DNA of 64,000 nucleotides from Escherichia coli. GTDB taxonomy: Bacteria > Pseudomonadota > Gammaproteobacteria > Enterobacterales > Enterobacteriaceae. The first letter of the stretch is position 1. Each line of letters opens with the position of its first letter. The position numbers and the translations under genes are program-made. The stretch is from the NCBI RefSeq assembly GCF_050920415.1, contig NZ_CP169309.1; one strand, 5' to 3'. Below, piece after piece: positions 2,001-62,882 of the stretch. The notes under the pieces are model-generated. The model was not told the DNA's origin, made no database searches, and was given only the letters and a program-made list of their open reading frames with translations.

Positions 2001-2993
2001 TTACAGCTCGCTCTCTTTGTGGAATCCGTCTTTAACTACCGTATCTTTGATGTTGTTTTTATTCACATCGATCGGTGTCAGCAGGCGGGAGGGAACATCT
2101 TTCAGACCATTATTCAGTGTGGTATCTGCTTTTGGTTCCTGACCATTGCCCAACTCAACGGCAATTTCTGCGGCAGTATTTGCCAACAATGTAATAGGTT
2201 TATACACCGTCATAGTTTGCGTACCGGCAGCAATACGTTTAATACCTGCGAGATCGGCATCCTGGCCGGAAATTGCTACTTTCCCTGATAAACCTTGCGC
2301 GCTTAATGCCTGAATTGCCCCGCCGGCGGTGGCATCGTTTGAGGCAACCACGGCATCAATTTTGTTATTATTGGCGGTCAGCGCGTTTTCCATAATTTTC
2401 AGTGCGTTTTCCGGTAACCAGCCATCAACCCATTGGTCACCAACGACTTTAATTTTTCCGGAATCAACGTAAGGTTTTAACACTTTCATTTGTCCGGCGC
2501 GGAACAGCTTAGCGTTGTTATCTACCGGCGAACCGCCCATCAGGAAGTAATTACCTTGCGGAACAATATCGACCAGGGCTTTTGCCTGCAGTTCACCGAC
2601 TTTTTCATTATCAAAAGAAATATAAAAATCGATATCTGCATCGTTAATCATACGGTCATAAGCTAATACTTTAATACCTTCTTGTTTGGCTTCTTTTACA
2701 ACGTTACTTAATACCTGACCGTTATACGGAATAATGACAAGAACATCGACACCCCGGTTAATCATGTTTTCAATCTGCGACATTTGTGTTTCTTCATTGC
2801 CATTTGCAGACTGTACAAATACTTTCGCGCCGAGAGACTCTGCTTTTTTCACAAAAATATCTCGATCTTTTTGCCAGCGTTCAAGACGGAGATCATCAAT
2901 CGCCATACCTATTTTGACTTCTTTGGCGTGCGCCGCAACGTTGGTAAGCAGAAGTGAGGTGCAAAGGGTGAGTAGAATGTTCTTTATTTTCAT
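2001..2993 (-). CDS. xylF: D-xylose-binding periplasmic protein XylF
   Basis: ORF 2001..3071; start chosen at MKIKNILLTLCTSLLLTNVAAHA (signal peptide), 330 aa; periplasmic sugar-binding fold. Confidence 0.93.
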   Translation of the reverse strand: MKIKNILLTLCTSLLLTNVAAHAKEVKIGMAIDDLRLERWQKDRDIFVKKAESLGAKVFVQSANGNEETQMSQIENMINRGVDVLVIIPYNGQVLSNVVKEAKQEGIKVLAYDRMINDADIDFYISFDNEKVGELQAKALVDIVPQGNYFLMGGSPVDNNAKLFRAGQMKVLKPYVDSGKIKVVGDQWVDGWLPENALKIMENALTANNNKIDAVVASNDATAGGAIQALSAQGLSGKVAISGQDADLAGIKRIAAGTQTMTVYKPITLLANTAAEIAVELGNGQEPKADTTLNNGLKDVPSRLLTPIDVNKNNIKDTVVKDGFHKESEL

Positions 2994-3071
2994 GTTGTAG
3001 GGCCTTCTGTAGTTAGAGGACAGCTTTAATAAGTAACAATCACCGCGATAAACGTAACCAATTTTTAGCAA

Positions 3072-3346
3072 CTAAACAGGGGAAAACAATTACAGATTTT
3101 TATCTTTCGATTACGATTTTTGGTTTATTTCTTGATTTATGACAGAGATCTTACTTTTGTTGCGCAATTGTACTTATTGCATTTTTCTCTTCGAGGAATT
3201 ACCCAGTTTCATCATTCCATTTTATTTTGCGAGCGAGCGCACACTTGTGAATTATCTCAATAGCAGTGTGAAATAACATAATTGAGCAACTGAAAGGGAG
3301 TGCCCAATATTACGACATCATCCATCACCCGCGGCATTACCTGATT
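3072..3346. promoter_or_regulatory. divergent xylA / xylFGH control region (expected XylR and CRP sites; not individually mapped)
   Basis: About 275 bp AT-rich intergenic region between divergently oriented xylF and xylA; individual operator positions not resolved. Confidence 0.5.
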
Positions 3347-3358
3347 ATGGAGTTCAAT

Positions 3359-4681
3359 ATGCAAGCCTATTTTGACCAGCTCGATCGCGTTCGTTATGAA
3401 GGCTCAAAATCCTCTAACCCGTTAGCATTCCATCACTATAATCCCGACGAACTGGTGTTGGGCAAGCGTATGGAAGAGCACTTGCGTTTTGCCGCCTGCT
3501 ACTGGCACACCTTCTGCTGGAACGGGGCGGACATGTTTGGTGTGGGGGCGTTTAATCGTCCGTGGCAGCAGCCTGGTGAGGCACTGGCGTTGGCGAAGCG
3601 TAAAGCAGATGTCGCATTTGAGTTTTTCCACAAGTTACATGTGCCATTTTATTGCTTCCACGACGTGGATGTTTCCCCTGAGGGCGCGTCGTTAAAAGAG
3701 TACATCAATAATTTTGCGCAAATGGTTGATGTCCTGGCAGGCAAGCAAGAAGAGAGCGGCGTGAAGCTGCTGTGGGGAACCGCTAACTGCTTTACAAACC
3801 CTCGCTACGGTGCGGGTGCGGCGACGAACCCAGATCCAGAAGTCTTTAGTTGGGCGGCGACGCAAGTTGTTACAGCGATGGAAGCAACCCATAAATTGGG
3901 CGGTGAAAACTATGTTCTGTGGGGCGGTCGTGAAGGTTACGAAACGCTGTTAAATACCGACTTGCGTCAGGAGCGTGAACAACTGGGCCGCTTTATGCAG
4001 ATGGTGGTTGAGCATAAACATAAAATCGGTTTCCAGGGTACGTTGCTTATCGAACCGAAACCGCAAGAACCGACTAAACATCAATATGATTACGATGCCG
4101 CGACGGTGTATGGCTTCCTGAAACAGTTTGGTCTGGAAAAAGAGATTAAACTGAACATTGAAGCTAACCACGCGACGCTGGCAGGTCACTCTTTCCATCA
4201 TGAAATAGCCACCGCCATTGCGCTTGGCCTGTTCGGTTCTGTCGACGCCAACCGTGGCGATGCACAACTGGGCTGGGACACCGACCAGTTCCCGAACAGT
4301 GTGGAAGAGAATGCGCTGGTGATGTATGAAATTCTCAAAGCAGGCGGTTTCACCACCGGCGGTCTGAACTTCGATGCCAAAGTCCGTCGTCAAAGTACTG
4401 ATAAATATGATCTGTTTTACGGTCATATCGGCGCGATGGATACGATGGCGTTGGCGCTGAAAATTGCAGCACGCATGATTGAAGATGGCGAGCTGGATAA
4501 ACGCATCGCGCAGCGTTATTCCGGCTGGAATAGCGAATTAGGCCAGCAAATCCTGAAAGGCCAAATGTCACTGGCAGATTTAGCCAAATATGCTCAGGAA
4601 CATAATTTGTCTCCGGTGCATCAGAGTGGTCGCCAGGAGCAACTGGAAAATCTGGTAAACCATTATCTGTTCGACAAATAA
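3359..4681 (+). CDS. xylA: xylose isomerase XylA
   Basis: ORF 3347..4681; start at [18 protein letters not shown], 440 aa; recognised as XylA. Confidence 0.95.
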
Positions 4682-4752: not shown

Positions 4753-6207
4753 ATGTATATCGGGATAGATCTTGGCACCTCGGGCGTAAAAGTTATTTTG
4801 CTCAACGAGCAGGGTGAGGTGGTTGCTTCGCAAACGGAAAAGCTGACCGTTTCGCGCCCGCATCCACTCTGGTCGGAACAAGACCCGGAACAGTGGTGGC
4901 AGGCAACTGATCGCGCAATGAAAGCTCTGGGCGATCAGCATTCTCTGCAGGACGTTAAAGCATTGGGTATTGCCGGCCAGATGCACGGTGCAACCTTACT
5001 GGATGCCCAGCAACGGGTATTACGCCCTGCCATTTTGTGGAACGACGGGCGCTGTGCGCAAGAGTGCACTTTGCTGGAAGCGCGAGTTCCGCAATCACGG
5101 GTGATTACCGGTAACCTGATGATGCCCGGATTTACTGCGCCTAAATTGCTATGGGTTCAGCGGCATGAGCCGGAGATATTCCGTCAAATCGACAAAGTAT
5201 TATTACCGAAAGATTACTTGCGTCTGCGTATGACGGGGGAGTTTGCCAGCGATATGTCTGACGCAGCTGGCACCATGTGGCTGGATGTCGCAAAGCGTGA
5301 CTGGAGTGACGTCATGCTGCAGGCTTGCCACTTATCTCGTGACCAGATGCCCGCATTATACGAAGGCAGCGAAATTACTGGTGCTTTGCTACCTGAAGTT
5401 GCGAAAGCGTGGGGTATGGCGGCAGTGCCAGTTGTCGCAGGCGGTGGTGATAATGCAGCTGGTGCGGTTGGTGTAGGAATGGTTGATGCTAATCAGGCAA
5501 TGTTATCGCTGGGGACGTCGGGGGTCTATTTTGCTGTCAGCGAAGGGTTCTTAAGCAAGCCAGAAAGCGCCGTACACAGCTTTTGCCATGCGCTACCGCA
5601 GCGTTGGCATTTAATGTCTGTGATGCTGAGTGCAGCGTCGTGTCTGGATTGGGCCGCGAAATTAACGGGCCTGAACAATGTCCCAGCTTTAATCGCGGCT
5701 GCTCAACAGGCTGATGAAAGTGCCGAGCCAGTTTGGTTTCTGCCTTATCTTTCCGGTGAACGTACGCCACACAACAATCCCCAGGCGAAGGGGGTTTTCT
5801 TTGGTTTGACCCATCAACATGGTGCTAATGAACTGGCGCGAGCAGTGCTGGAAGGCGTGGGTTATGCGCTGGCAGATGGCATGGATGTCGTGCATGCCTG
5901 CGGCATTAAACCGCAAAGTGTTACGTTGATTGGTGGCGGGGCGCGTAGTGAGTACTGGCGTCAGATGCTGGCGGATATCAGCGGTCAGCAACTCGATTAC
6001 CGCACGGGGGGGGATGTGGGGCCAGCACTGGGCGCAGCAAGGCTGGCGCAGATTGCGGCGAATCCAGAGAAATCGCTCATTGAGTTGTTGCCACAACTGC
6101 CGTTAGAACAGTCGCATTTACCAGATGCGCAGCGTTATGCCACTTATCAGCCACGACGTGAAACGTTCCGTCGCCTCTATCAGCAACTTCTGCCATTAAT
6201 GGCGTAA
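4753..6207 (+). CDS. xylB: xylulokinase XylB
   Basis: 484-aa ORF starting MYIGIDLGTSGVKVILLNEQG (FGGY sugar kinase N-terminal motif), immediately downstream of xylA. Confidence 0.95.
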   Translation: MYIGIDLGTSGVKVILLNEQGEVVASQTEKLTVSRPHPLWSEQDPEQWWQATDRAMKALGDQHSLQDVKALGIAGQMHGATLLDAQQRVLRPAILWNDGRCAQECTLLEARVPQSRVITGNLMMPGFTAPKLLWVQRHEPEIFRQIDKVLLPKDYLRLRMTGEFASDMSDAAGTMWLDVAKRDWSDVMLQACHLSRDQMPALYEGSEITGALLPEVAKAWGMAAVPVVAGGGDNAAGAVGVGMVDANQAMLSLGTSGVYFAVSEGFLSKPESAVHSFCHALPQRWHLMSVMLSAASCLDWAAKLTGLNNVPALIAAAQQADESAEPVWFLPYLSGERTPHNNPQAKGVFFGLTHQHGANELARAVLEGVGYALADGMDVVHACGIKPQSVTLIGGGARSEYWRQMLADISGQQLDYRTGGDVGPALGAARLAQIAANPEKSLIELLPQLPLEQSHLPDAQRYATYQPRRETFRRLYQQLLPLMA

Positions 6208-6374
6208 ACGTTATCCCCTGCCTGACCGGGTGGGGGATAATCCACATCTATATATATCAGTAATTAATTAATATTTAGTATGAATTTATTCTGAAATCAT
6301 TTGTTAATGGCATTTTTCAGTTTTGTCTTTCGTTGGTTACTCGTAATGTATCGCTGGTAGATATGGAGATCATT

Positions 6375-6716
6375 ATGAAAACCTCAAAGACTGTGGCAAA
6401 ACTATTATTTGTTGTCGGGGCGCTGGTTTATCTGCTTGGGCTATGGATCTCATGCCCATTGTTAAGTGGAAAAGGCTATTTTCTTGGCGTGTTAATGACG
6501 GCAACTTTTGGCAACTATGCATATCTTCGTGCTGAAAGACTCGGGCAACTGGATGATTTTTTTATCCGTGTCTGCCAGTTGGTAGCGTTAATCACAATCG
6601 GTCTCTTGTTTATCGGTGTTTTAAATGCGCCTATCAATGCTTATGAAATGGTGATTTATGCCATCGCCTTTTTTGTTTGCTTGTTTGGTCAAATGCGTTT
6701 GTTTCGCTCGGCATGA
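6375..6716 (+). CDS. yiaB: inner membrane protein YiaB
   Basis: ORF 6333..6716; start chosen at MKTSKTVAKLL (113 aa); hydrophobic, predicted membrane protein; position next to xylB. Confidence 0.65.
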   Translation: MKTSKTVAKLLFVVGALVYLLGLWISCPLLSGKGYFLGVLMTATFGNYAYLRAERLGQLDDFFIRVCQLVALITIGLLFIGVLNAPINAYEMVIYAIAFFVCLFGQMRLFRSA

Positions 6717-6761
6717 GCAACATAAAGCTCTTACACATTCAGGAATGAAAGGAATACTGTG

Positions 6762-7199
6762 ATGGACAACAAAATATCAACCTATTCTCCGGCATTTAGT
6801 ATTGTGTCATGGATAGCTCTTGTTGGTGGTATCGTTACCTATCTATTAGGGCTATGGAATGCAGAGATGCAGTTAAATGAAAAAGGATATTATTTTGCCG
6901 TGCTGGTGCTAGGACTGTTTTCTGCGGCATCTTATCAAAAGACCGTTCGTGACAAGTATGAAGGCATACCGACCACCTCCATTTATTATATGACCTGCCT
7001 GACTGTCTTTATTATCTCTGTTGCGTTATTGATGGTAGGTCTGTGGAATGCGACGTTATTACTCAGCGAAAAAGGTTTTTATGGGCTGGCTTTCTTCTTA
7101 AGCTTGTTTGGTGCAGTAGCGGTGCAGAAGAATATTCGTGATGCCGGAATAAACCCACCAAAAGAAACACAGGTTACCCAGGAAGAATACAGCGAATAA
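6762..7199 (+). CDS. yiaA: inner membrane protein YiaA
   Basis: ORF 6759..7199 (145 aa from second Met); hydrophobic, paralogous in architecture to the preceding ORF. Confidence 0.65.
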
Positions 7200-9725: not shown

Positions 9726-11795
9726 ATGTCTGAGAAAACTTTTCTGGTGGAAATCGGCACTGAAGAGCTGCCACCAAAAGCACTGCGCAGCCTGGCTGAG
9801 TCCTTTGCTGCGAACTTTACTGCGGAGCTGGATAACGCTGGCCTCGCACACGGCACCGTTCAATGGTTTGCTGCTCCGCGTCGTCTGGCGCTGAAAGTAG
9901 CTAACCTGGCGGAAGCGCAACCGGATCGTGAAATCGAAAAACGCGGCCCGGCAATTGCTCAGGCGTTCGACGCTGAAGGCAAACCGAGCAAAGCGGCAGA
10001 AGGCTGGGCGCGTGGTTGCGGTATTACCGTTGACCAGGCTGAGCGTCTGACTACCGATAAAGGCGAATGGCTGCTGTATCGCGCCCACGTGAAGGGCGAA
10101 AGCACTGAAGCACTGTTGCCGAATATGGTTGCGACTTCGCTGGCGAAACTGCCGATCCCGAAACTGATGCGTTGGGGTGCAAGCGACGTGCACTTCGTGC
10201 GTCCGGTGCACACCGTGACCCTGCTGCTGGGCGACAAAGTTATTCCGGCTACCATTCTGGGCATTCAGTCCGATCGCGTGATTCGCGGCCACCGCTTTAT
10301 GGGCGAGCCGGAATTCACTATCGACAATGCTGATCAGTATCCGGAAATTCTGCGTGAGCGCGGGAAAGTCATCGCCGATTACGAAGAACGTAAGGCGAAG
10401 ATTAAAGCCGATGCCGAAGAAGCGGCGCGTAAGATTGGCGGTAACGCTGACTTAAGCGAAAGCCTGTTGGAAGAAGTCGCTTCGCTGGTGGAATGGCCGG
10501 TTGTGCTGACCGCAAAATTCGAAGAGAAATTCCTCGCGGTGCCGTCTGAAGCACTGGTTTACACCATGAAAGGTGACCAGAAATACTTCCCGGTGTATGC
10601 GAACGACGGCAAACTGCTGCCGAACTTTATCTTCGTTGCCAATATCGAATCGCAAGATCCGCAGCAAATTATCTCTGGTAACGAGAAAGTCGTTCGTCCA
10701 CGTCTGGCGGATGCCGAGTTCTTCTTCAACACCGACCGTAAAAAACGTCTGGAAGATAACCTGCCGCGCCTGCAAACCGTGTTGTTCCAGCAACAGCTGG
10801 GTACACTGCGCGACAAAACTGACCGCATCCAGGCGCTGGCTGGCTGGATTGCTGAACAGATTGGCGCTGACGTTAACCACGCAACCCGTGCGGGCCTGCT
10901 GTCCAAGTGCGACCTGATGACCAACATGGTCTTCGAGTTCACCGACACCCAGGGCGTTATGGGGATGCACTACGCGCGTCACGATGGTGAAGCGGAAGAT
11001 GTCGCAGTGGCGCTGAACGAGCAGTATCAGCCGCGTTTTGCTGGTGATGACCTGCCGTCTAACCCAGTGGCTTGTGCGCTGGCTATTGCTGACAAGATGG
11101 ATACCCTGGCGGGTATCTTCGGTATCGGCCAGCATCCGAAAGGCGACAAAGACCCGTTTGCGTTGCGTCGTGCCGCGCTGGGCGTGCTGCGCATTATCGT
11201 TGAGAAGAACCTCAACCTCGATCTGCAAACACTGACTGAAGAAGCGGCGCGTCTGTACGGTGATAAGCTGACTAACGCCAACGTGGTTGATGACGTTATC
11301 GACTTTATGCTCGGTCGCTTCCGCGCCTGGTATCAGGACGAAGGTTACACCGTTGACACCATCCAGGCGGTACTGGCGCGTCGTCCGACTCGTCCGGCTG
11401 ATTTCGATGCCCGAATGAAAGCGGTATCGCACTTCCGAACCCTGGATGCGGCGGCAGCACTGGCGGCGGCGAATAAGCGTGTATCTAACATTCTGGCGAA
11501 ATCTGACGAAGTGCTGAGCGACCGCGTGAATGCCTCTACTCTGAAAGAGCCGGAAGAAATTAAACTGGCGATGCAGGTTGTGGTGCTACGTGACAAGCTA
11601 GAGCCGTACTTTGCTGAAGGTCGTTACCAGGATGCGCTGGTCGAACTGGCTGAGCTGCGTGAACCGGTTGATGCCTTCTTCGATAAAGTGATGGTCATGG
11701 TTGATGACAAAGAATTGCGAATCAACCGTCTTACCATGCTGGAGAAACTGCGCGAATTATTCCTGCGAGTTGCGGATATTTCGCTGTTGCAGTAA
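9726..11795 (+). CDS. glyS: glycine--tRNA ligase beta subunit
   Basis: 689-aa ORF starting [20 protein letters not shown], 9 bp downstream of glyQ. Confidence 0.97.
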
Positions 11796-11811
11796 TAACG
11801 TCGTTATTAAA

Positions 11812-11838
11812 AAGCCTGCCATCTGGCAGGCTTTTTTA
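11812..11838 (+). terminator. rho-independent terminator of glyQS
   Basis: GCCTGCC-ATCT-GGCAGGC hairpin followed by a TTTTTT run directly after the glyS stop. Confidence 0.7.
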
Positions 11839-12004
11839 TCGCTAAATAATAGAGCAACCTTTAATAATCTTCTGCTGAATAAAGATTGTCTCATATATTA
11901 ATTTTATGAGATTTTTTAGGATTATATCAAAGAGAAGAAAAGAACTTATTAAGCTAGAATAGCCACAGGTGCTTGAGACTGTTTGTCTCAGGTATTCACC
12001 GAAA

Positions 12005-12065
12005 GGCAGACAGAGAAAAGCCCCACCTGACTATAAATCAAAGTGAGGCCCCTCTATGCATAGAC
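12005..12065 (-). ncRNA. sokA: putative SokA antisense RNA of the hokA type I toxin-antitoxin locus
   Basis: Minus-strand candidate promoter (TTGATT, 17-bp spacer, TAACCT) reading antisense across the upstream in-frame ATG of the hokA ORF, followed by an imperfect hairpin plus U-run; ends inferred, not measured. Confidence 0.3.
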
Positions 12066-12115
12066 ACCATAAGGTTAGCCTCTTACTCGTTGGAAATCAA
12101 CACAGGAGGCTGGGA

Positions 12116-12268
12116 ATGCCGCAGAAATATAGATTACTTTCTTTAATAGTGATTTGTTTCACGCTTTTATTTTTCACCTGGATGATAAGAGATTCACTGT
12201 GTGAATTGCATATTAAACAGGAGAATTATGAGCTGGCGGCGTTTTTAGCCTGCAAATTGAAAGAGTAA
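12116..12268 (+). CDS. hokA: Hok-family small toxic membrane peptide HokA
   Basis: 50-aa ORF MPQKYRLLSLIVICFTLLFFTWMIRDSLCELHIKQENYELAAFLACKLKE preceded by Shine-Dalgarno AGGAGG; Hok family signature. Confidence 0.85.
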   Translation: MPQKYRLLSLIVICFTLLFFTWMIRDSLCELHIKQENYELAAFLACKLKE

Positions 12269-12275
12269 GAGTCTT

Positions 12276-12302
12276 CGGCGGGAAGTTATTCCCGCCTTTC
12301 TT
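12276..12302 (+). terminator. rho-independent terminator downstream of hokA
   Basis: GGCGGGAA-GTTA-TTCCCGCC hairpin followed by TTTCTT. Confidence 0.6.
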
Positions 12303-12456
12303 ACGGCGTTGCGCATTCTCATTGCACCCAAATTTATTCTTCACAAAAATAATAATAGATTTTATTACGCGAACGATTATTTATTTCCTGAATAAACAAA
12401 TAAAAAAATCCCCGCCATTTGGCAGGGATCTTAGATTCTGTGCTTTTAAGCAGAGA

Positions 12457-12669
12457 TTACAGGCTGGTTACGTTACCAGCTGCCGGGCCTTTAGCGCCGC
12501 TTTCGATGGTGAAGGACACTTTCTGACCTTCGTCCAGAGATTTGTAACCATCGTTCTGGATAGCAGAGAAGTGTACGAACACGTCTTTAGAACCATCGTC
12601 AGGAGTGATGAAGCCGAAGCCTTTGTCAGCGTTGAACCATTTTACGATACCAGTCATTTTACCGGACAT
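12457..12669 (-). CDS. cspA: major cold-shock protein CspA
   Basis: 70-aa [73 protein letters not shown]; cold-shock domain with RNP motifs. Confidence 0.97.
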
Positions 12670-24433: not shown

Positions 24434-24519
24434 GTAGGCCTGATAAGACGCGTCAGCGCCGCATCAGGCAACGGCACCGCACTTATTGTCGGATGCGGCG
24501 TGAACGCCTTATCTGACCG
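24434..24519. repeat. REP/BIME element (two inverted REP palindromes)
   Basis: GTAGGCCTGATAAGACGCGTCAGCGCCGCATCAGGCA and CGGATGCGGCGTGAACGCCTTATC: canonical REP consensus. Confidence 0.8.
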
Positions 24520-25056
24520 ACACACCACATATTTCCCTGCCAAATTTGCGCCCCACATCTCACTATCCATTAACGGATTTGTGACAGAATCCATTGTCTT
24601 TTTTTATATTTGCTTAAATCTTTTTTTGCGTTACTTATGGCTGGCGCTGGTATTTTCCGCTGTGCGTTTTAGCGTTCATGGTATTAATCGCTCAGATATC
24701 CATCTTTTCCTCAGATTTTTTTCATTAAATGCATAAAACTTAATCACCAAATGTTGCTAAATATTAAGCTGATTGTTCTGGTTATGTTGGCGTAGCACAA
24801 ATTTCTCTGCTGCAAATAGCTGTTTGAAGTTTTTTTAATCTTTGTTTGTGGATTCTCACCGTTGGTGTAAATCCCGGTTGGCTGTATTGACGTTTTCACA
24901 TTCTGTTGACAGATTGTAGGTCACGAGGGGCATTTTATGGAGGATCCGCACTGTTACACTGATGTTAATTAGTACGGCATCCCCACCTCATAACGTTGAC
25001 CCGACCGGGTAAAAAACAAAAAAGGTCAGGCAGCGACAACCCACTGCAAAGGGTTA

Positions 25057-25073
25057 AAACAACAAACATCACA
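25057..25073 (+). promoter_or_regulatory. CA-rich element in the dppA leader (candidate GcvB sRNA pairing site)
   Basis: AACAACAAACATCACAA about 15 nt upstream of the dppA Shine-Dalgarno (GGAG); GcvB targets CA-rich sites in dppA. Confidence 0.45.
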
Positions 25074-25087
25074 ATTGGAGCAGAATA

Positions 25088-26695
25088 ATGCGTATTTCCT
25101 TGAAAAAGTCAGGGATGCTGAAGCTTGGTCTCAGCCTGGTGGCTATGACCGTCGCAGCAAGTGTTCAGGCTAAAACTCTGGTTTATTGCTCAGAAGGATC
25201 TCCTGAAGGGTTTAACCCGCAGCTGTTTACCTCCGGCACCACCTATGACGCCTCTTCCGTACCGCTTTATAACCGCCTGGTTGAATTTAAAATCGGCACC
25301 ACTGAAGTGATTCCGGGCCTCGCTGAAAAGTGGGAAGTCAGCGAAGACGGTAAAACCTATACCTTCCATCTGCGTAAAGGTGTGAAGTGGCATAACAACA
25401 AAGAATTCAAACCGACGCGCGAACTGAATGCCGATGACGTGGTGTTCTCGTTCGATCGTCAGAAAAACGCACAAAACCCGTACCATAAAGTTTCTGGCGG
25501 TAGCTACGAATACTTCGAAGGTATGGGCTTGCCGGAGCTGATCAGCGAAGTGAAAAAGGTGGACGACAACACCGTTCAGTTCGTGCTGACTCGCCCGGAA
25601 GCGCCGTTCCTTGCTGACCTGGCAATGGACTTCGCCTCTATTCTGTCAAAAGAATATGCTGACGCGATGATGAAAGCCGGTACGCCGGAAAAACTGGACC
25701 TTAACCCAATCGGCACCGGCCCGTTCCAGTTACAGCAGTATCAAAAAGATTCCCGTATCCGCTACAAAGCGTTTGATGGCTACTGGGGCACCAAACCACA
25801 GATCGATACGCTGGTCTTCTCTATTACCCCTGACGCTTCCGTGCGTTACGCTAAATTGCAGAAAAATGAATGCCAGGTGATGCCGTACCCGAACCCGGCA
25901 GACATCGCCCGCATGAAGCAGGATAAATCCATCAACCTGATGGAAATGCCGGGGCTGAACGTCGGCTATCTCTCGTATAACGTGCAGAAAAAACCACTGG
26001 ATGACGTGAAAGTTCGCCAGGCACTGACCTATGCGGTGAACAAAGACGCGATTATCAAAGCAGTGTATCAGGGCGCGGGCGTATCAGCGAAAAACCTGAT
26101 CCCGCCAACCATGTGGGGCTATAACGATGATGTTCAGGACTACACCTACGATCCTGAAAAAGCGAAAGCCTTGCTGAAAGAAGCGGGTCTGGAAAAAGGC
26201 TTCTCTATCGACCTGTGGGCAATGCCGGTACAACGTCCGTATAACCCGAACGCTCGTCGCATGGCAGAGATGATTCAGGCAGACTGGGCGAAAGTCGGCG
26301 TACAAGCGAAAATCGTTACCTACGAATGGGGTGAGTACCTCAAGCGTGCAAAAGATGGCGAGCACCAGACGGTAATGATGGGCTGGACTGGCGACAACGG
26401 GGATCCGGATAACTTCTTCGCTACCCTGTTCAGCTGCGCTGCCTCTGAACAAGGCTCCAACTACTCAAAATGGTGCTACAAACCGTTTGAAGATCTGATT
26501 CAACCGGCGCGTGCTACCGACGACCACAACAAGCGTGTTGAACTGTACAAACAAGCACAGGTCGTGATGCACGATCAGGCTCCGGCACTGATCATCGCTC
26601 ACTCCACCGTGTTTGAACCGGTACGCAAAGAAGTTAAAGGCTATGTGGTTGATCCATTAGGCAAACATCACTTCGAAAACGTCTCTATCGAATAA
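25088..26695 (+). CDS. dppA: dipeptide ABC transporter periplasmic binding protein DppA
   Basis: 535-aa ORF starting MRISLKKSGMLKLGLSLVAMTVAASVQAKTLVYCSEG; recognised as DppA. Confidence 0.97.
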   Translation: MRISLKKSGMLKLGLSLVAMTVAASVQAKTLVYCSEGSPEGFNPQLFTSGTTYDASSVPLYNRLVEFKIGTTEVIPGLAEKWEVSEDGKTYTFHLRKGVKWHNNKEFKPTRELNADDVVFSFDRQKNAQNPYHKVSGGSYEYFEGMGLPELISEVKKVDDNTVQFVLTRPEAPFLADLAMDFASILSKEYADAMMKAGTPEKLDLNPIGTGPFQLQQYQKDSRIRYKAFDGYWGTKPQIDTLVFSITPDASVRYAKLQKNECQVMPYPNPADIARMKQDKSINLMEMPGLNVGYLSYNVQKKPLDDVKVRQALTYAVNKDAIIKAVYQGAGVSAKNLIPPTMWGYNDDVQDYTYDPEKAKALLKEAGLEKGFSIDLWAMPVQRPYNPNARRMAEMIQADWAKVGVQAKIVTYEWGEYLKRAKDGEHQTVMMGWTGDNGDPDNFFATLFSCAASEQGSNYSKWCYKPFEDLIQPARATDDHNKRVELYKQAQVVMHDQAPALIIAHSTVFEPVRKEVKGYVVDPLGKHHFENVSIE

Positions 26696-36217: not shown

Positions 36218-37785
36218 GATGAGCGCTCCACAGCATCATCTAACAGTCGCATTGGTTCTGGTATTCTTCGCCAGTGGCGACCATCGTGCTCGGCATTGAT
36301 GACCGGTTTAGAACTTTGCGTTAAAGGCAGCGGCATGCCCCATTGTTCTGGGGCAAGCAGGCGCATCTGCACCAGCTCGGCACTGATTTGATCATCTTCA
36401 AACCAGACCATACGGTTTGAGAAAATGTCGCCAGTCGGCAATGGGAAAATATGATTCAACGCGGTATCCAGATCGTTAATCCGACAGAATGAGAGAAACA
36501 GCACCAGCCGATTACCGCCAATGGTCATGATATCGCCGGTACGGTTAGGGCGACACAGCGTCAGGGCTTGCTCAACGCGGATACCCGGTACCGGACGTAG
36601 GGCAACCAGAACGCCTTTACCATGTGCAGGCAAGAGAGGGTTATTCATCATGTTGTTAACGGCATTACAGAACACATCCCACTTCTGGAAACCACGCAGT
36701 TTGAGCGGCTGGGTCATTGACAGCAAGGTAGTGATATCTTCCGGCACATAGCGACTAAACTTCTGCCCTTGCACGCTTTCGATCATCGTCAGACAGCGGG
36801 AGAGTGGCGCATTCCACGGGATAACCATATTTGCACCGCAGGCCAATAATAAACGTTCATCGGTGGCGCGCAGGCTTGCAGTATTTTCCCGTACGAGGAT
36901 TTTCATCGCACTACCGCGCTGGCGACGCAGAGTATGAATGCTGCGGGCCAGTGGCTCGATTTGCGCATTTTGCTGTAAAGAAAAGACCACCGTCGCCGCC
37001 TGAGCTGTACGGGCTTCATTGAACAGAACTTCGTTATTGTTGAACAGTTGCCAGTGTTCCGATAGGGGCGGTGCACCTTCCAGTACAGCAACATTACTCA
37101 GAATGCGTTTTTCGTCGCTGCGTGGTTGGATCTCCGCCTCTTCGCTTTGAACTAATGTCCAGATACCATTTTGTTGCTGAACGCTAAGCTGCTGACGGGC
37201 GCTGACCCCTTTTTCGTTGCACCAGAAGGCAATATCCAGCAAATGTTGGTCGCCCTGAAAACGCAAACTGGCAAGACCAAAAAGTGAACGGTATTCCTCA
37301 AGCAACAATGAAAATTGTTTATCGTTATTATTTCCGGGATTAATTACCAAAAGCGAACAATGGTTTAACCTGCTCCATTTATTCATTTTATCCAACCATG
37401 AGCGAAGCCGCTCGGCAGGAATGTTTTGCCATGCGTTATTTGCGCAAACAAGAATAAAAAGGTAATTATTGGGATCAATAGAACACTGCAAATCACGGGC
37501 CAAATAGTATAGACCTTTTTCATGATTTAGCATTGAAAATAATTTTATTTTTTCCGGCCCTTGAGAATCATCTAATTGAAAGATTTTCGCCGGATCGCTG
37601 TCCATGCTAATGACCGCGACGTGTGCGGTTTCAGCCTGGGATGCAATTGTTTGATTCGCCAGACTGATAGCATCTTCATGGCGATCGACGTTAAACCACC
37701 AGACGCCGCCTGCTGGCATATGTCGCAGCTCATCCCATAATGATGAGATACCGATAGAGAATACAGGGTCCACAATGTCCCTCAT
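36214..37785 (-). CDS. bcsE: cellulose biosynthesis c-di-GMP-binding protein BcsE
   Basis: 523-aa ORF; position and size match bcsE. Confidence 0.88.
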
Positions 37786-38056
37786 GTCATCATTTTGTCT
37801 GATTATCAGTTTACTAGCGAAAGCTAAGAAATAAACCTACCATTGAAATTAAAACTTATCAGATTTAGCATGTGAATCAATTTAGCAGGTCACAAGACGT
37901 GTGATTTTAGTCTTTTCGTTTTTAACTTTTTTTGTTGCGTAACGGAAAGTCAAAAAGTGAGCAAATTCCCGTCTCGCCGTAAACAATAAACCGGCGAAAT
38001 GCTCACGGTTAGAATTGTCTCATGAACGGTGCGGTTATTTCATAGGGATCAAGCAA

Positions 38057-60860: not shown

Positions 60861-61760
60861 TCAGTCCAGGTACTCTTTCATTACGCCAGCCAGCCACTGC
60901 ATAAACAGGTTTACACGCCGGGAAAGCTCCCGACGCTGCGGATAAACCAGCGAAAGGGAGAGCGGCTCGGCACGGTAGCCAGGTAATACTTCAATAAGCC
61001 GCCCGGCACGCAGGGCTTCGCGCACGGCAATGCGCGGGATCTGAATAATCCCCAGACCGGCAAAACCGGCGGCGAGATAGTTTTCGCTACTGTTTACCGT
61101 CAACATGCCGCCAGACTTAAACCACTGGACGCCATTAACGCTGGCAACCTCAAAACCTAACGGATGTACACTCAGGTGGGGTGTGTAACGCACTATTGCG
61201 TGTGAAGTCAGATCGTCGGGGCTTTGTGGATAACCAAAGCGTGTCAGATAGTGTGGACTGGCACAGTTGACCATGGTTAGTTTGCCGAGGGGACAGGCGA
61301 TAACACCATCTTCCGATAACGCGCCAGTGCGTATCACGCAATCAAAACCATCATGAAGAATATCTACCGGACGGTTATGGCTACTCAGTTCCAGCTCAAT
61401 TCCCGGATGCTGATAGAGAAATTCCGACAGGCGCGGCAGTAACAGGCTTTTCGCGATTCCTGGTGGGATGTCGATGCGTAATTTACCGCTGATACTGGTG
61501 GCATCCTGTTGAAACAGACCGTCCAGTTCGTTGAGATTACTCAACACATCTTTTGCCCGTTGATAATAGGTCATGCCTTCTGGCGTGAGTTTGACCCGTC
61601 GCGTGGTGCGCTGGAGAAGCTGGGTGCCAAGTTGATGTTCCAGTGCCTGTATCTGGCGCGAAACACTTCCTTTTGGCAAAGCAAAGAAATCCGCTGCGCG
61701 GGAAAAACTTTCCAGCTCCGCGACTTTGATGAACAACTGCATTGCGTGAATTTTATCCAT
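60861..61760 (-). CDS. yhjC: LysR-type transcriptional regulator YhjC
   Basis: ORF 60861..61832; start chosen at MDKIHAMQLFIKVAELESFSRAADFFALPKGSVSRQIQALEHQLG (LysR HTH), 299 aa. Confidence 0.8.
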   Translation of the reverse strand: MDKIHAMQLFIKVAELESFSRAADFFALPKGSVSRQIQALEHQLGTQLLQRTTRRVKLTPEGMTYYQRAKDVLSNLNELDGLFQQDATSISGKLRIDIPPGIAKSLLLPRLSEFLYQHPGIELELSSHNRPVDILHDGFDCVIRTGALSEDGVIACPLGKLTMVNCASPHYLTRFGYPQSPDDLTSHAIVRYTPHLSVHPLGFEVASVNGVQWFKSGGMLTVNSSENYLAAGFAGLGIIQIPRIAVREALRAGRLIEVLPGYRAEPLSLSLVYPQRRELSRRVNLFMQWLAGVMKEYLD

Positions 61761-62279
61761 TTCTTTGACCGATTGTTGTTCACATCGAAACAGTAACGCG
61801 CATATCGCATTGTTTATTGTTTTTTCTAACATCTAATGCCGGGTTTCACAATGTTGTCATGACGAATGTGGCGATTTCTCAGTAGGAAAAGGGGAGAATA
61901 GCTTTATGAGAAAGGTGAATCCCCTTAAACAGAGCGTATTTTTCAGCGATTCCCTTTAAAGTGAATAGAGGACGTATTGGCTATTTGTGCTTATTTTTGT
62001 CTCATTGCCGTTTGTTATTTTGGCTTGTGGTCGCGGAATTTCATTTTTAATTGCATGCGTACTAGCCATCAATATAAGGAAATCCTCAAAATTGTTTTAA
62101 ATAGTGCCCTCGACATGTAATTTCAGGCGTTTAGCTGTAACTATTTATATCGGTAACTATTTTCTACGCGTCATCTCTGTAGAATGGCCACCGCCAAATG
62201 GCGAATTCTTATTTTTTCTCGCGGGTAATACCCTTCCACTACTTAAGTCTTTTTAACGTATTCAGGTGGAGATTCAGTT

Positions 62280-62882
62280 ATGCAAATAGTCATGTTTGAC
62301 AGGCAGTCAATATTTATTCATGGAATGAAAATCAGTTTACAGCATCGTATTCCAGGAGTGAGTATTCAGGGGGCCAGTCAGGCAGACGAGTTATGGCAAA
62401 AGCTGGAAAGTTACCCTGAAGCCTTAGTGATGCTCGATGGCGATCAGGATGGTGAGTTTTGCTACTGGTTGCTGCAAAAAACCGTGGTGCAATTTCCTGA
62501 GGTTAAGGTGTTAATTACGGCGACGGATTGCAACAAACGGTGGTTACAGGAAGTTATTCATTTTAATGTGCTGGCCATTGTGCCTCGTGATTCAACCGTC
62601 GAGACATTTGCGTTGGCGGTCAATAGTGCGGCGATGGGGATGATGTTTCTGCCTGGAGACTGGCGAACGACGCCGGAAAAGGACATTAAAGATCTCAAAT
62701 CGTTAAGCGCCCGCCAGCGGGAGATTTTAACCATGTTAGCGGCGGGCGAATCAAATAAAGAGATCGGCAGGGCGCTGAATATCAGTACCGGAACGGTGAA
62801 AGCGCATCTGGAATCACTGTATCGCCGTCTGGAAGTCAAAAATCGCACCCAGGCGGCAATGATGTTAAATATCTCCTCCTGA
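62280..62882 (+). CDS. yhjB: LuxR/FixJ-type HTH response-regulator-like protein YhjB
   Basis: 200-aa ORF with C-terminal LuxR-type HTH (LSARQREILTMLAAGESNKEIGRALNISTGTVKAHL). Confidence 0.8.
   Translation: MQIVMFDRQSIFIHGMKISLQHRIPGVSIQGASQADELWQKLESYPEALVMLDGDQDGEFCYWLLQKTVVQFPEVKVLITATDCNKRWLQEVIHFNVLAIVPRDSTVETFALAVNSAAMGMMFLPGDWRTTPEKDIKDLKSLSARQREILTMLAAGESNKEIGRALNISTGTVKAHLESLYRRLEVKNRTQAAMMLNISS

Follow-up and report, generated by a model that had tools for sequence, protein, structure and literature searches.

The long, AT-rich yhjC-yhjB spacer of Escherichia coli as a probable composite divergent regulatory region

Long, AT-rich intergenic spacers that are bound by H-NS form a familiar type of regulatory DNA in E. 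coli, such as the DNA between csgD and csgB or that preceding gadE. The spacer between the divergent regulator genes yhjC and yhjB resembles spacers of this type in being long, AT-rich and H-NS-bound, in lying beside poorly expressed regulator genes, and in carrying several mapped or plausible protein binding sites, including a PhoB site, a weak YqhC peak and, in Salmonella, a SoxS site. It differs in regulatory outcome, the PhoB site having no effect on expression in one study (PMC10294691) and conflicting effects in another (PMC3465305). A related point of reference is the set of transcriptionally inert PhoB sites reported by Fitzgerald et al. (2023, PMC10294691), in which the Pho box described below appears as the listed yhjB/yhjC site; this site is intergenic, not intragenic, and overlaps the putative -35 element of yhjC.

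Two further classes of genetic element invite comparison with the spacer. E. coli small proteins and leader peptides, as detected by ribosome profiling and tagging, share with it a short open reading frame (ORF) upstream of a regulator gene, preceded by a well-spaced motif resembling a Shine-Dalgarno (SD) sequence; however, small-protein genes of E. coli retain both start codon and frame from strain to strain and, as a rule, from genus to genus, and the 17-codon ORF found here does neither. Rho-independent terminators and attenuators consist of an inverted repeat followed by a T-run, and such a combination is present in the spacer, but its stem is short, interrupted and weak, its broken pairs are uncompensated, and no RNA 3' end has been mapped to it.

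The window analysed in this study is a stretch of 64,000 nucleotides of E. coli DNA, in which the spacer takes up positions 61761-62279, that is, the 519 bp between the yhjC ATG at 61760 and the yhjB start at 62280. On the minus strand yhjC is accompanied by yhjD, and on the plus strand yhjB is followed by treF. The GC content of the spacer is 38.3%, compared with 51.4% for the whole window, so that it ranks in the lowest 0.84% when every 519-nt window of the 64 kb is considered; the long, AT-rich divergent spacer described in an earlier, sequence-only reading of this DNA is borne out. Over positions 61700-62340 (641 bp), identity is 100% with strain MFDS1022581 and about 98% with the majority of other E. 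coli strains. No RefSeq feature is annotated inside the spacer in MG1655, in MFDS1022581 or in 30 listed genomes sharing the ATG allele discussed below, and a search of Rfam 15 returned three chance-level matches only (E above 6), every one of them outside the spacer.

The internal zones of the spacer were delimited by alignments within Escherichia and across Escherichia, Citrobacter, Salmonella and Intestinirhabdus, and strain polymorphism was counted in an alignment of nine diverse E. coli strains. The resulting anatomy, with a conserved zone next to each gene and a fast-evolving zone between them, is summarized in Table 1 together with the individual features.

Table 1. Positions of the genes, zones and sequence elements of the yhjC-yhjB region, numbered from the first letter of the window.
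Feature	Position	Strand	Basis or remark
yhjC (rcdB), LysR-type regulator, coding sequence	60861..61760	-	ORF list; RefSeq annotation in MG1655 and in a strain identical over the 641 bp compared
Zone 1, yhjC-proximal conserved promoter zone (putative promoter)	61761..61864		Cross-genus conservation; 8 variable sites in 104 bp, 9 strains
Candidate sigma-70 promoter of yhjC	61823..61851	-	-35 TTGTGA (61851..61846), 17-nt spacer, -10 TAGAAA (61828..61823); read from sequence
Pho box TTTCACAATGTTGTCATG, published PhoB site	61844..61861	+	Same sequence as the site given in Table 1 of PMC10294691
Zone 2, fast-evolving middle	61865..62072		Hardly alignable between Escherichia species; 30 variable sites in 208 bp, 9 strains
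SD-like GGGGAG and 17-codon ORF, judged non-functional	61891..61959	+	ORF at 61906-61959, sequence MRKVNPLKQSVFFSDSL followed by a stop
Marbox-like GCACAAATAGCCAAT	61976..61990	-	Sole conserved island of zone 2 (Escherichia alignment)
Zone 3, yhjB-proximal conserved zone	62073..62279	+	Near-invariant across Escherichia; 4 variable sites in 207 bp, 9 strains
Palindrome TAAGGAAATCCTCA (TAAGG-N4-CCTTA in relatives)	62075..62088		Resembles an RcsB/LuxR-type box; conserved in 12 species
Direct repeat TAGCTGTAACTATTT / TATCGGTAACTATTT, 16-bp spacing	62132..62162	+	Repeat search, family D1; repeat unit GTAACTATTT
63-nt core conserved across genera (to Salmonella and Citrobacter)	62178..62240	+	62% invariant columns, 11 species
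33-codon upstream ORF overlapping the yhjB start, judged unlikely	62198..62299	+	ORF list
yhjB, LuxR/GerE-type regulator, coding sequence	62280..62882	+	ORF list; RefSeq annotation
yhjB codons 5-17, frozen synonymous sites	62292..62330	+	Includes the palindrome TTGAC-aggca-GTCAA (62296-62310)

Taken as a whole, the spacer is quite likely a composite divergent regulatory region bound by H-NS, with conserved promoter zones at its ends, a chance ORF in its middle and no terminator. In such an arrangement, zone 1 (about 105 bp) would contain a sigma-70-like promoter of yhjC overlapped by a weak PhoB site, zone 2 (about 210 bp) would evolve almost freely and carry the 17-codon ORF by chance and in a restricted set of lineages, and zone 3 (about 205 bp) would be held by strong purifying selection, with the hairpin and T-run lying inside its most conserved 63 nt. 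Part of this regulatory nature is already published, namely the binding of PhoB and of H-NS. Among the alternatives that the sequence-only reading had offered side by side, an H-NS-type regulatory region is supported by the H-NS-bound listing, the PhoB site and the conserved, promoter-like ends, whereas a leader peptide, small protein or small RNA (sRNA) is not supported, given the lost start codon, the empty Rfam search, the absence of compensatory changes and the absence of a 3' end. The spacer is most probably not a small-protein gene, a terminator or a member of a described RNA family, because each of the defining features tested for these classes is missing from it.

Zone 1 is conserved in the alignment of Escherichia, Citrobacter, Salmonella and Intestinirhabdus, and the columns of its TTGTGA and TAGAAA hexamers are invariant or nearly so among 10 species. 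From these two hexamers and their 17-nt spacing we infer a yhjC promoter at this position. The Pho box overlaps the putative -35 element, and outside E. coli only its first half (TTTC.CAAT) is conserved. In the published data, a PhoB peak at MG1655 position 3672318 (approximately window position 61856) has a ChIP-seq score of 2 and is H-NS-bound, and deletion of phoB led to no change in expression (PMC10294691); the same site was recovered by ChIP-chip and bound with low affinity in a gel shift, with conflicting reporter and array results (PMC3465305). A direct-repeat motif is indeed found under the ChIP peak, the binding itself being taken from PMC10294691 and PMC3465305, and for H-NS an AT-rich sequence (38% GC here) coincides with in vivo occupancy, the latter taken from a column of Table 1 in PMC10294691. 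In addition, a YqhC ChIP-exo peak flagged as 'bound by RNAP' (PMC8464067 suppl. 5) falls at approximately 61852-61890, a placement which assumes that the coordinates of that paper are, as they appear to be, those of U00096.2. No start site of yhjB or yhjC is listed in SMRT-Cappable-seq data, in the E. coli and Klebsiella transcription start site tables, or in the Salmonella D23580 tables.

The comparison with Citrobacter bears on the question of why the spacer is long. Between yhjC and yhjB, C. amalonaticus and C. sedlakii carry an intact 252-aa short-chain dehydrogenase (SDR) gene 120 bp from yhjC, which C. rodentium retains as a pseudogene, and a divergent spacer of 120 bp is typical of a LysR-type regulator facing the gene that it controls. 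In E. coli, zone 1 can be aligned with the DNA separating yhjC from the SDR gene in Citrobacter as far as the SDR start codon, which would suit a history in which the E. coli spacer is long through gene loss, zone 2 being the fully decayed remnant of the SDR gene; such a history is compatible with the regulatory explanation given above. However, tblastn found no SDR remnant in the spacers of E. coli, Salmonella or Intestinirhabdus, the best match having E = 0.58 and lying in the wrong zone, and one gain in a single Citrobacter group requires fewer events than three losses. With no trace of the SDR gene found in E. coli or Salmonella, descent of zone 2 from a lost gene is no more than a possibility, and an unlikely one.

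The 17-codon ORF of zone 2, which had been proposed as a possible leader peptide or small protein, is present as described, GGGGAG occupying 61891-61896, nine nt upstream of the ATG at 61906. Its start is not conserved within E. coli. The counterpart in MG1655 has CTG in place of ATG and GGGCGG in place of the SD-like motif, and this CTG allele, counted by a 30-mer, occurs in 3,608 of 5,426 complete E. coli genomes (66%), including O157:H7. ATG alleles are represented among the 5,426 genomes by a GTG/TCC haplotype (440 genomes, including Nissle 1917 and ATCC 11775), a GTA/TCC haplotype (547 genomes) and the ATG 40-mer of the window itself (34 genomes), while the 40-mer with the SD variant of the window is found in 3. 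Alleles were counted by haplotype-specific 30-mers, and about 15% of the genomes have haplotypes left unclassified; exact 40-mers of the window make the ATG seem very rare, their count being low because of linked polymorphisms visible in the nine-strain alignment.

Among the nine diverse strains, the ORF region is free of indels; seven strains begin the ORF with ATG, one has CTG and one (strain 104) has CTT, and the SD position reads GGGCGG, GGGAGG or GGGGAG. The changes within the ORF are few in all, comprising three synonymous changes, approximately four replacements (P6S, PL to FP and L17F) and two start losses. Variable sites amount to 9 of 54 positions in the ORF and to 21 of the 154 zone 2 positions outside it, so that the ORF is as polymorphic as its surroundings. 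No ATG is present at the start position in five other species-level lineages of Escherichia, which have CTC, CAC or ATA there in a poor alignment. Moreover, 25% of 2,000 dinucleotide-preserving shuffles of the spacer contained at least one ATG ORF of at least 17 codons with an SD core 5-13 nt upstream. The most likely interpretation is that the 17-codon ORF is a lineage-restricted chance ORF and not a gene.

The same data can be read as traces of a genuine, lineage-restricted small protein or leader peptide that is made in ATG strains (for example of the B2 type, with the SD GGGAGG) and has disappeared from the K-12 and O157 lineages. In seven of the nine strains both the ATG and the entire frame persist without indels, three of the observed changes are synonymous, and ATG haplotypes are found in at least 1,021 genomes, with the strong SD GGGAGG nine nt upstream in some ATG strains; an ATG with this good SD occurs in at least 19% of E. 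coli genomes, Nissle 1917 and ATCC 11775 among them. Published ribosome profiling comes from K-12, where the ORF start is CTG. Against a real peptide stand the fact that 66% of genomes have lost the start, by either of two changes (to CTG or to CTT), the lack of a counterpart in other Escherichia species, the replacements listed above, a level of polymorphism equal to that of the surrounding unconstrained spacer, the 25% chance expectation of an equivalent ORF, and the fact that the ORF has no evident promoter and is unannotated in all genomes inspected, all of which makes this possibility very improbable. The proposal had been tied by its author to conservation of the ORF in close relatives, and on those terms it fails: K-12 and two thirds of the E. 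coli genomes lack the start codon, and sister species have no counterpart.

Zone 2 contains a single conserved element, the marbox-like GCACAAATAGCCAAT of Table 1. In Salmonella, a SoxS ChIP site, GCACATTTTGTTAAA, lies on the same strand and at a similar distance from yhjB (PMC10268841). The E. coli element, a candidate site, resembles the listed Salmonella sites of the MarA/SoxS/Rob type (asymmetric motif GCAY-N7-AAA), and its position and orientation match those of the SoxS site there. Salmonella yhjB is induced 7-20-fold by indole.

In zone 3, conservation extends from the zone itself into the coding sequence: positions 62170-62335, comprising the 3' half of the zone and early yhjB, are single-copy and at least 99% identical in 5,159 of 5,414 matching E. 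coli genomes. The proportion of invariant columns in the 63-nt core may be compared with 51%, 66% and 16% for the first, second and third codon positions of yhjB in the same 11 species. A pattern scan of metagenomes for copies of the core outside Escherichia yielded two true loci, both from Salmonella, among 16. The core holds a -10-like hexamer TAGAAT (62180-85), the hairpin (62181-62209), the T-run (62210-17) and a palindrome, GGGTAATACCC (62223-33).

The hexamer TAGAAT matches the -10 consensus at five of six positions and is conserved in 12 species; it has no recognizable -35 partner and is not called by a consensus promoter scan. Only its third base varies: Escherichia and two species of Citrobacter carry TAGAAT, while Salmonella, Intestinirhabdus and the remaining Citrobacter species carry TAAAAT, and the third base of the sigma-70 -10 hexamer is among its less constrained positions. 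There is a roughly even chance that the core represents the yhjB core promoter, with TA[G/A]AAT as the putative -10, together with an operator or a 5' leader. If TAGAAT served as the -10, the yhjB start would lie near 62192 and the leader would be about 88 nt long; the hexamer has no -35 element, and an activator may therefore be needed. In an in vitro transcription study, the spacer gave a signal toward yhjB with a sigma-S/sigma-70 ratio of 1.58. A sigma-54 promoter and TyrR, CpxR, EvgA and NarL boxes were also considered for the core and rejected, their spacings not fitting when compared by eye with consensus sequences.

Upstream of the core, zone 3 contains further conserved pieces. One is TGTAAT (62116-62121). 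Another is the direct repeat of Table 1, whose first copy is conserved across genera and whose second copy is found in Escherichia only. A third is the palindrome TAAGGAAATCCTCA, the counterparts of which in E. albertii and E. fergusonii are perfectly symmetrical. It shares its length, symmetry and outer bases with the RcsB box TN(G/A)GAN4TC(T/C)NA (Huesa et al. 2021, PMC7913699), and the TAAGG half-site also appears in the listed rcsA promoter site (PMC7913699). However, at the symmetric positions 5 and 10 it carries G and C where the published RcsB pattern has A and T, and it therefore misfits that pattern (PMC7913699). The TAAGG-N4-CCTTA palindrome could equally be a site for YhjB itself, although no peak is reported there by YhjB ChIP-exo.

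The small hairpin with its T-run, which the sequence-only reading had also pointed out, is present at 62181-62218. It consists of AGAAT (62181-85), CGCC (62192-95), the loop AAAT, GGCG (62200-03), a single A and ATTCT (62205-09), followed by TATTTTTT (62210-17). The existence of both hairpin and tract, the near-invariance of 62073-62218 across Escherichia, the transcription of the spacer toward yhjB in vitro and a promoter-like TTGCAT-16-TATAAG read from the sequence upstream, with TATAAG conserved, could be taken to indicate that a long yhjB leader contains an intrinsic terminator or attenuator, or that an sRNA of about 130 nt, starting near 62085 from that promoter, has its 3' end here. The structure itself, however, is weak. 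A terminator calls for a G+C-rich stem of at least five pairs directly before the U-tract, and the stem here is interrupted by an asymmetric internal loop and has four G-C pairs; its folding energy, between -7.5 and -8.0 kcal/mol with z between about -1.5 and -1.9, is not beyond chance, and a terminator scan of 61600-62400 found no site.

Comparative evidence points in the same direction. In an 11-species alignment, four of the nine hairpin pairs are broken, in one to six species each, and none of the breaks is compensated: a G-C pair becomes A·C in six species, a U-A pair becomes U·C in three, and the outer C-G pair of the inner stem is lost in three. Outside E. coli, the T-run is shortened to TTATTTT followed by AC. 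The covariation term of RNAalifold for the leader is approximately zero, the E. coli leader with early coding sequence folds no better than shuffled sequences (z = +0.16), and the energy of the duplex between leader and coding sequence is likewise no better than in shuffled controls. Conservation at the hairpin thus acts on the bases and not on their pairing. No RNA 3' end in the spacer is listed in the Term-seq tables of Adams et al. (PMC7815308 supplement), which is weak evidence because yhjB is poorly expressed (PMC10294691). With no Rfam match in addition, termination or attenuation at the hairpin, or an sRNA ending there, is very improbable, and the hairpin was rejected as a terminator on the strength of its weak stem, the failed scan, the uncompensated breaks and the lack of a listed 3' end. 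The sRNA suggested earlier is likewise not supported. Within the composite regulatory region proposed above, the hairpin and T-run would simply be part of the conserved core.

A different source of constraint on the core might be translation. An upstream ORF starting at ATG 62198 could control yhjB translation by coupling, and in 12 of 13 species its frame is uninterrupted and free of indels. The ORF has 33 codons in E. coli and 26 in Salmonella, where its stop overlaps the yhjB ATG (TAATG), and in several species it is fused in frame to yhjB; several of the cross-genus differences are synonymous (Leu TTA/CTA/CTC/TTG, Pro CCA/CCC/CCT and Tyr TAT/TAC). On the other hand, C. sedlakii and C. rodentium have AAG in place of the start codon, an early stop occurs in Intestinirhabdus, and no SD precedes ATG 62198. 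The distance to the yhjB ATG is 83, 84 or 85 nt, with a +1 shift in E. coli, and the frame relation to yhjB is therefore not conserved. The pN/pS of the frame is 0.71, compared with 0.88 and 1.00 in control frames, one of which is likewise free of stops. Translational coupling through this ORF is thus improbable as an explanation of the conserved core.

The conservation does not end at the yhjB start codon. In codons 5-17, 10 of 13 third positions are invariant among 11 species, in comparison with 8 of the other 47 among the first 60 codons (Fisher p = 1e-4), and this synonymous freeze is not accounted for by a simple promoter model. A tentative idea, and an unlikely one, is that the near-invariant block of about 150 nt that runs from the -10-like hexamer through the leader into codons 5-17 serves this orphan LuxR-type regulator as a cis-regulatory element of an undescribed kind, going beyond promoter and operator. 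Such an element could take the form of a protein- or sRNA-bound leader, a pair of CsrA-type GGA sites, an anti-SD switch (UUCCAC:GUGGAG) or a coupled upstream ORF. UUCCAC (62234-62239) can pair with the SD GUGGAG (62266-62271), and this pairing shows a compensatory change in one species and is broken in three.

The composite regulatory region thus proposed offers an account of the length of the spacer, which would consist of two conserved promoter zones with freely evolving DNA between them. The significance of the finding is small, in that a false small-gene candidate is removed. As a by-product, the analysis provides a map of constraint upstream of yhjB, a regulator of unknown function, and with it defined targets for mutagenesis in work on YhjB and RcdB, namely the 63-nt core, the TAAGG-N4-CCTTA palindrome and the frozen third positions of codons 5-17. 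The only lead worth pursuing is the conservation seen in the leader and early codons of yhjB.

The gene to which the 63-nt conserved core upstream of yhjB belongs can be judged from genomes in which yhjC, the LysR-type regulator gene on the other side of the spacer, has been lost or truncated. This is the case in Escherichia fergusonii, where a called ORF of 57 aa adjoins yhjD, and in Escherichia sp. MOD1-EC7003, where residues 184-265 alone remain. Since the core is still present in E. fergusonii despite the loss or truncation of yhjC, these comparisons of sequence assign it to yhjB and not to yhjC.

The neighborhood of yhjB also varies in Citrobacter. In C. amalonaticus and C. sedlakii, yhjC and yhjB are separated by a gene for a short-chain dehydrogenase of 252 aa; in C. 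rodentium this gene has decayed to a pseudogene, and in Escherichia, Salmonella, and Intestinirhabdus it is missing between yhjC and yhjB, with no detectable relic. At a locus labelled C. freundii, the usual upstream neighbor of yhjB gives way to a co-directional EAL-domain gene, and the 63-nt core is retained.

Coordinates of features in the window and at loci of other genomes (L-numbers, own coordinates)
Feature	Coordinates	Remark
yhjB codons 5-17	window 62292-62330	
Near-palindrome ATTCCCTTTAAAGTGAAT	window 61949-61966	across stop codon of the 17-codon spacer ORF; repeat search, family I2, 91% complementary
Other stretches with GC ≤40% over 519 nt	window 2354-3504, 6156-6815, 11641-12466, 24481-25127, 37412-37975	five; lowest 36.6%, at 11891
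Short-chain dehydrogenase gene or pseudogene, Citrobacter	L008 1360-2115; L037 384-1142; L038 about 668-1146	
yhjC lost or truncated, E. fergusonii	L035 924-1097	
yhjC lost or truncated, MOD1-EC7003	L003 2048-2287	
yhjB with EAL-domain neighbor, labelled C. freundii	L041 291-1139	

Term-seq tables place 3' ends antisense to yhjB at MG1655 3671519 and 3671289 on the + strand (about 62655 and 62885 on the - strand of the window), consistent with the treF terminator and with treF read-through into yhjB. Many E. coli YhjB entries among protein matches P0010-P0031 have 206-214 aa and 96-99% identity with only about 80-87% query coverage, and such entries suggest an end that is variant or frameshifted in some strains. 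A 241-nt scaffold in the assembly of Limosilactobacillus vaginalis DSM 5837 (L011), a member of the Lactobacillaceae, encodes YhjB residues 76-155, 100% identical to the window; this scaffold is almost certainly a contaminant from E. coli.

Within yhjB itself, 10 of the 13 third positions of codons 5-17 are invariant across 11 species of the four genera Escherichia, Citrobacter, Salmonella, and Intestinirhabdus, compared with 8 of 47 nearby (p = 1e-4), and the palindrome TTGAC-aggca-GTCAA lies inside this segment. The frozen synonymous sites suggest that the coding sequence is overlapped here by constraint at the nucleotide level.
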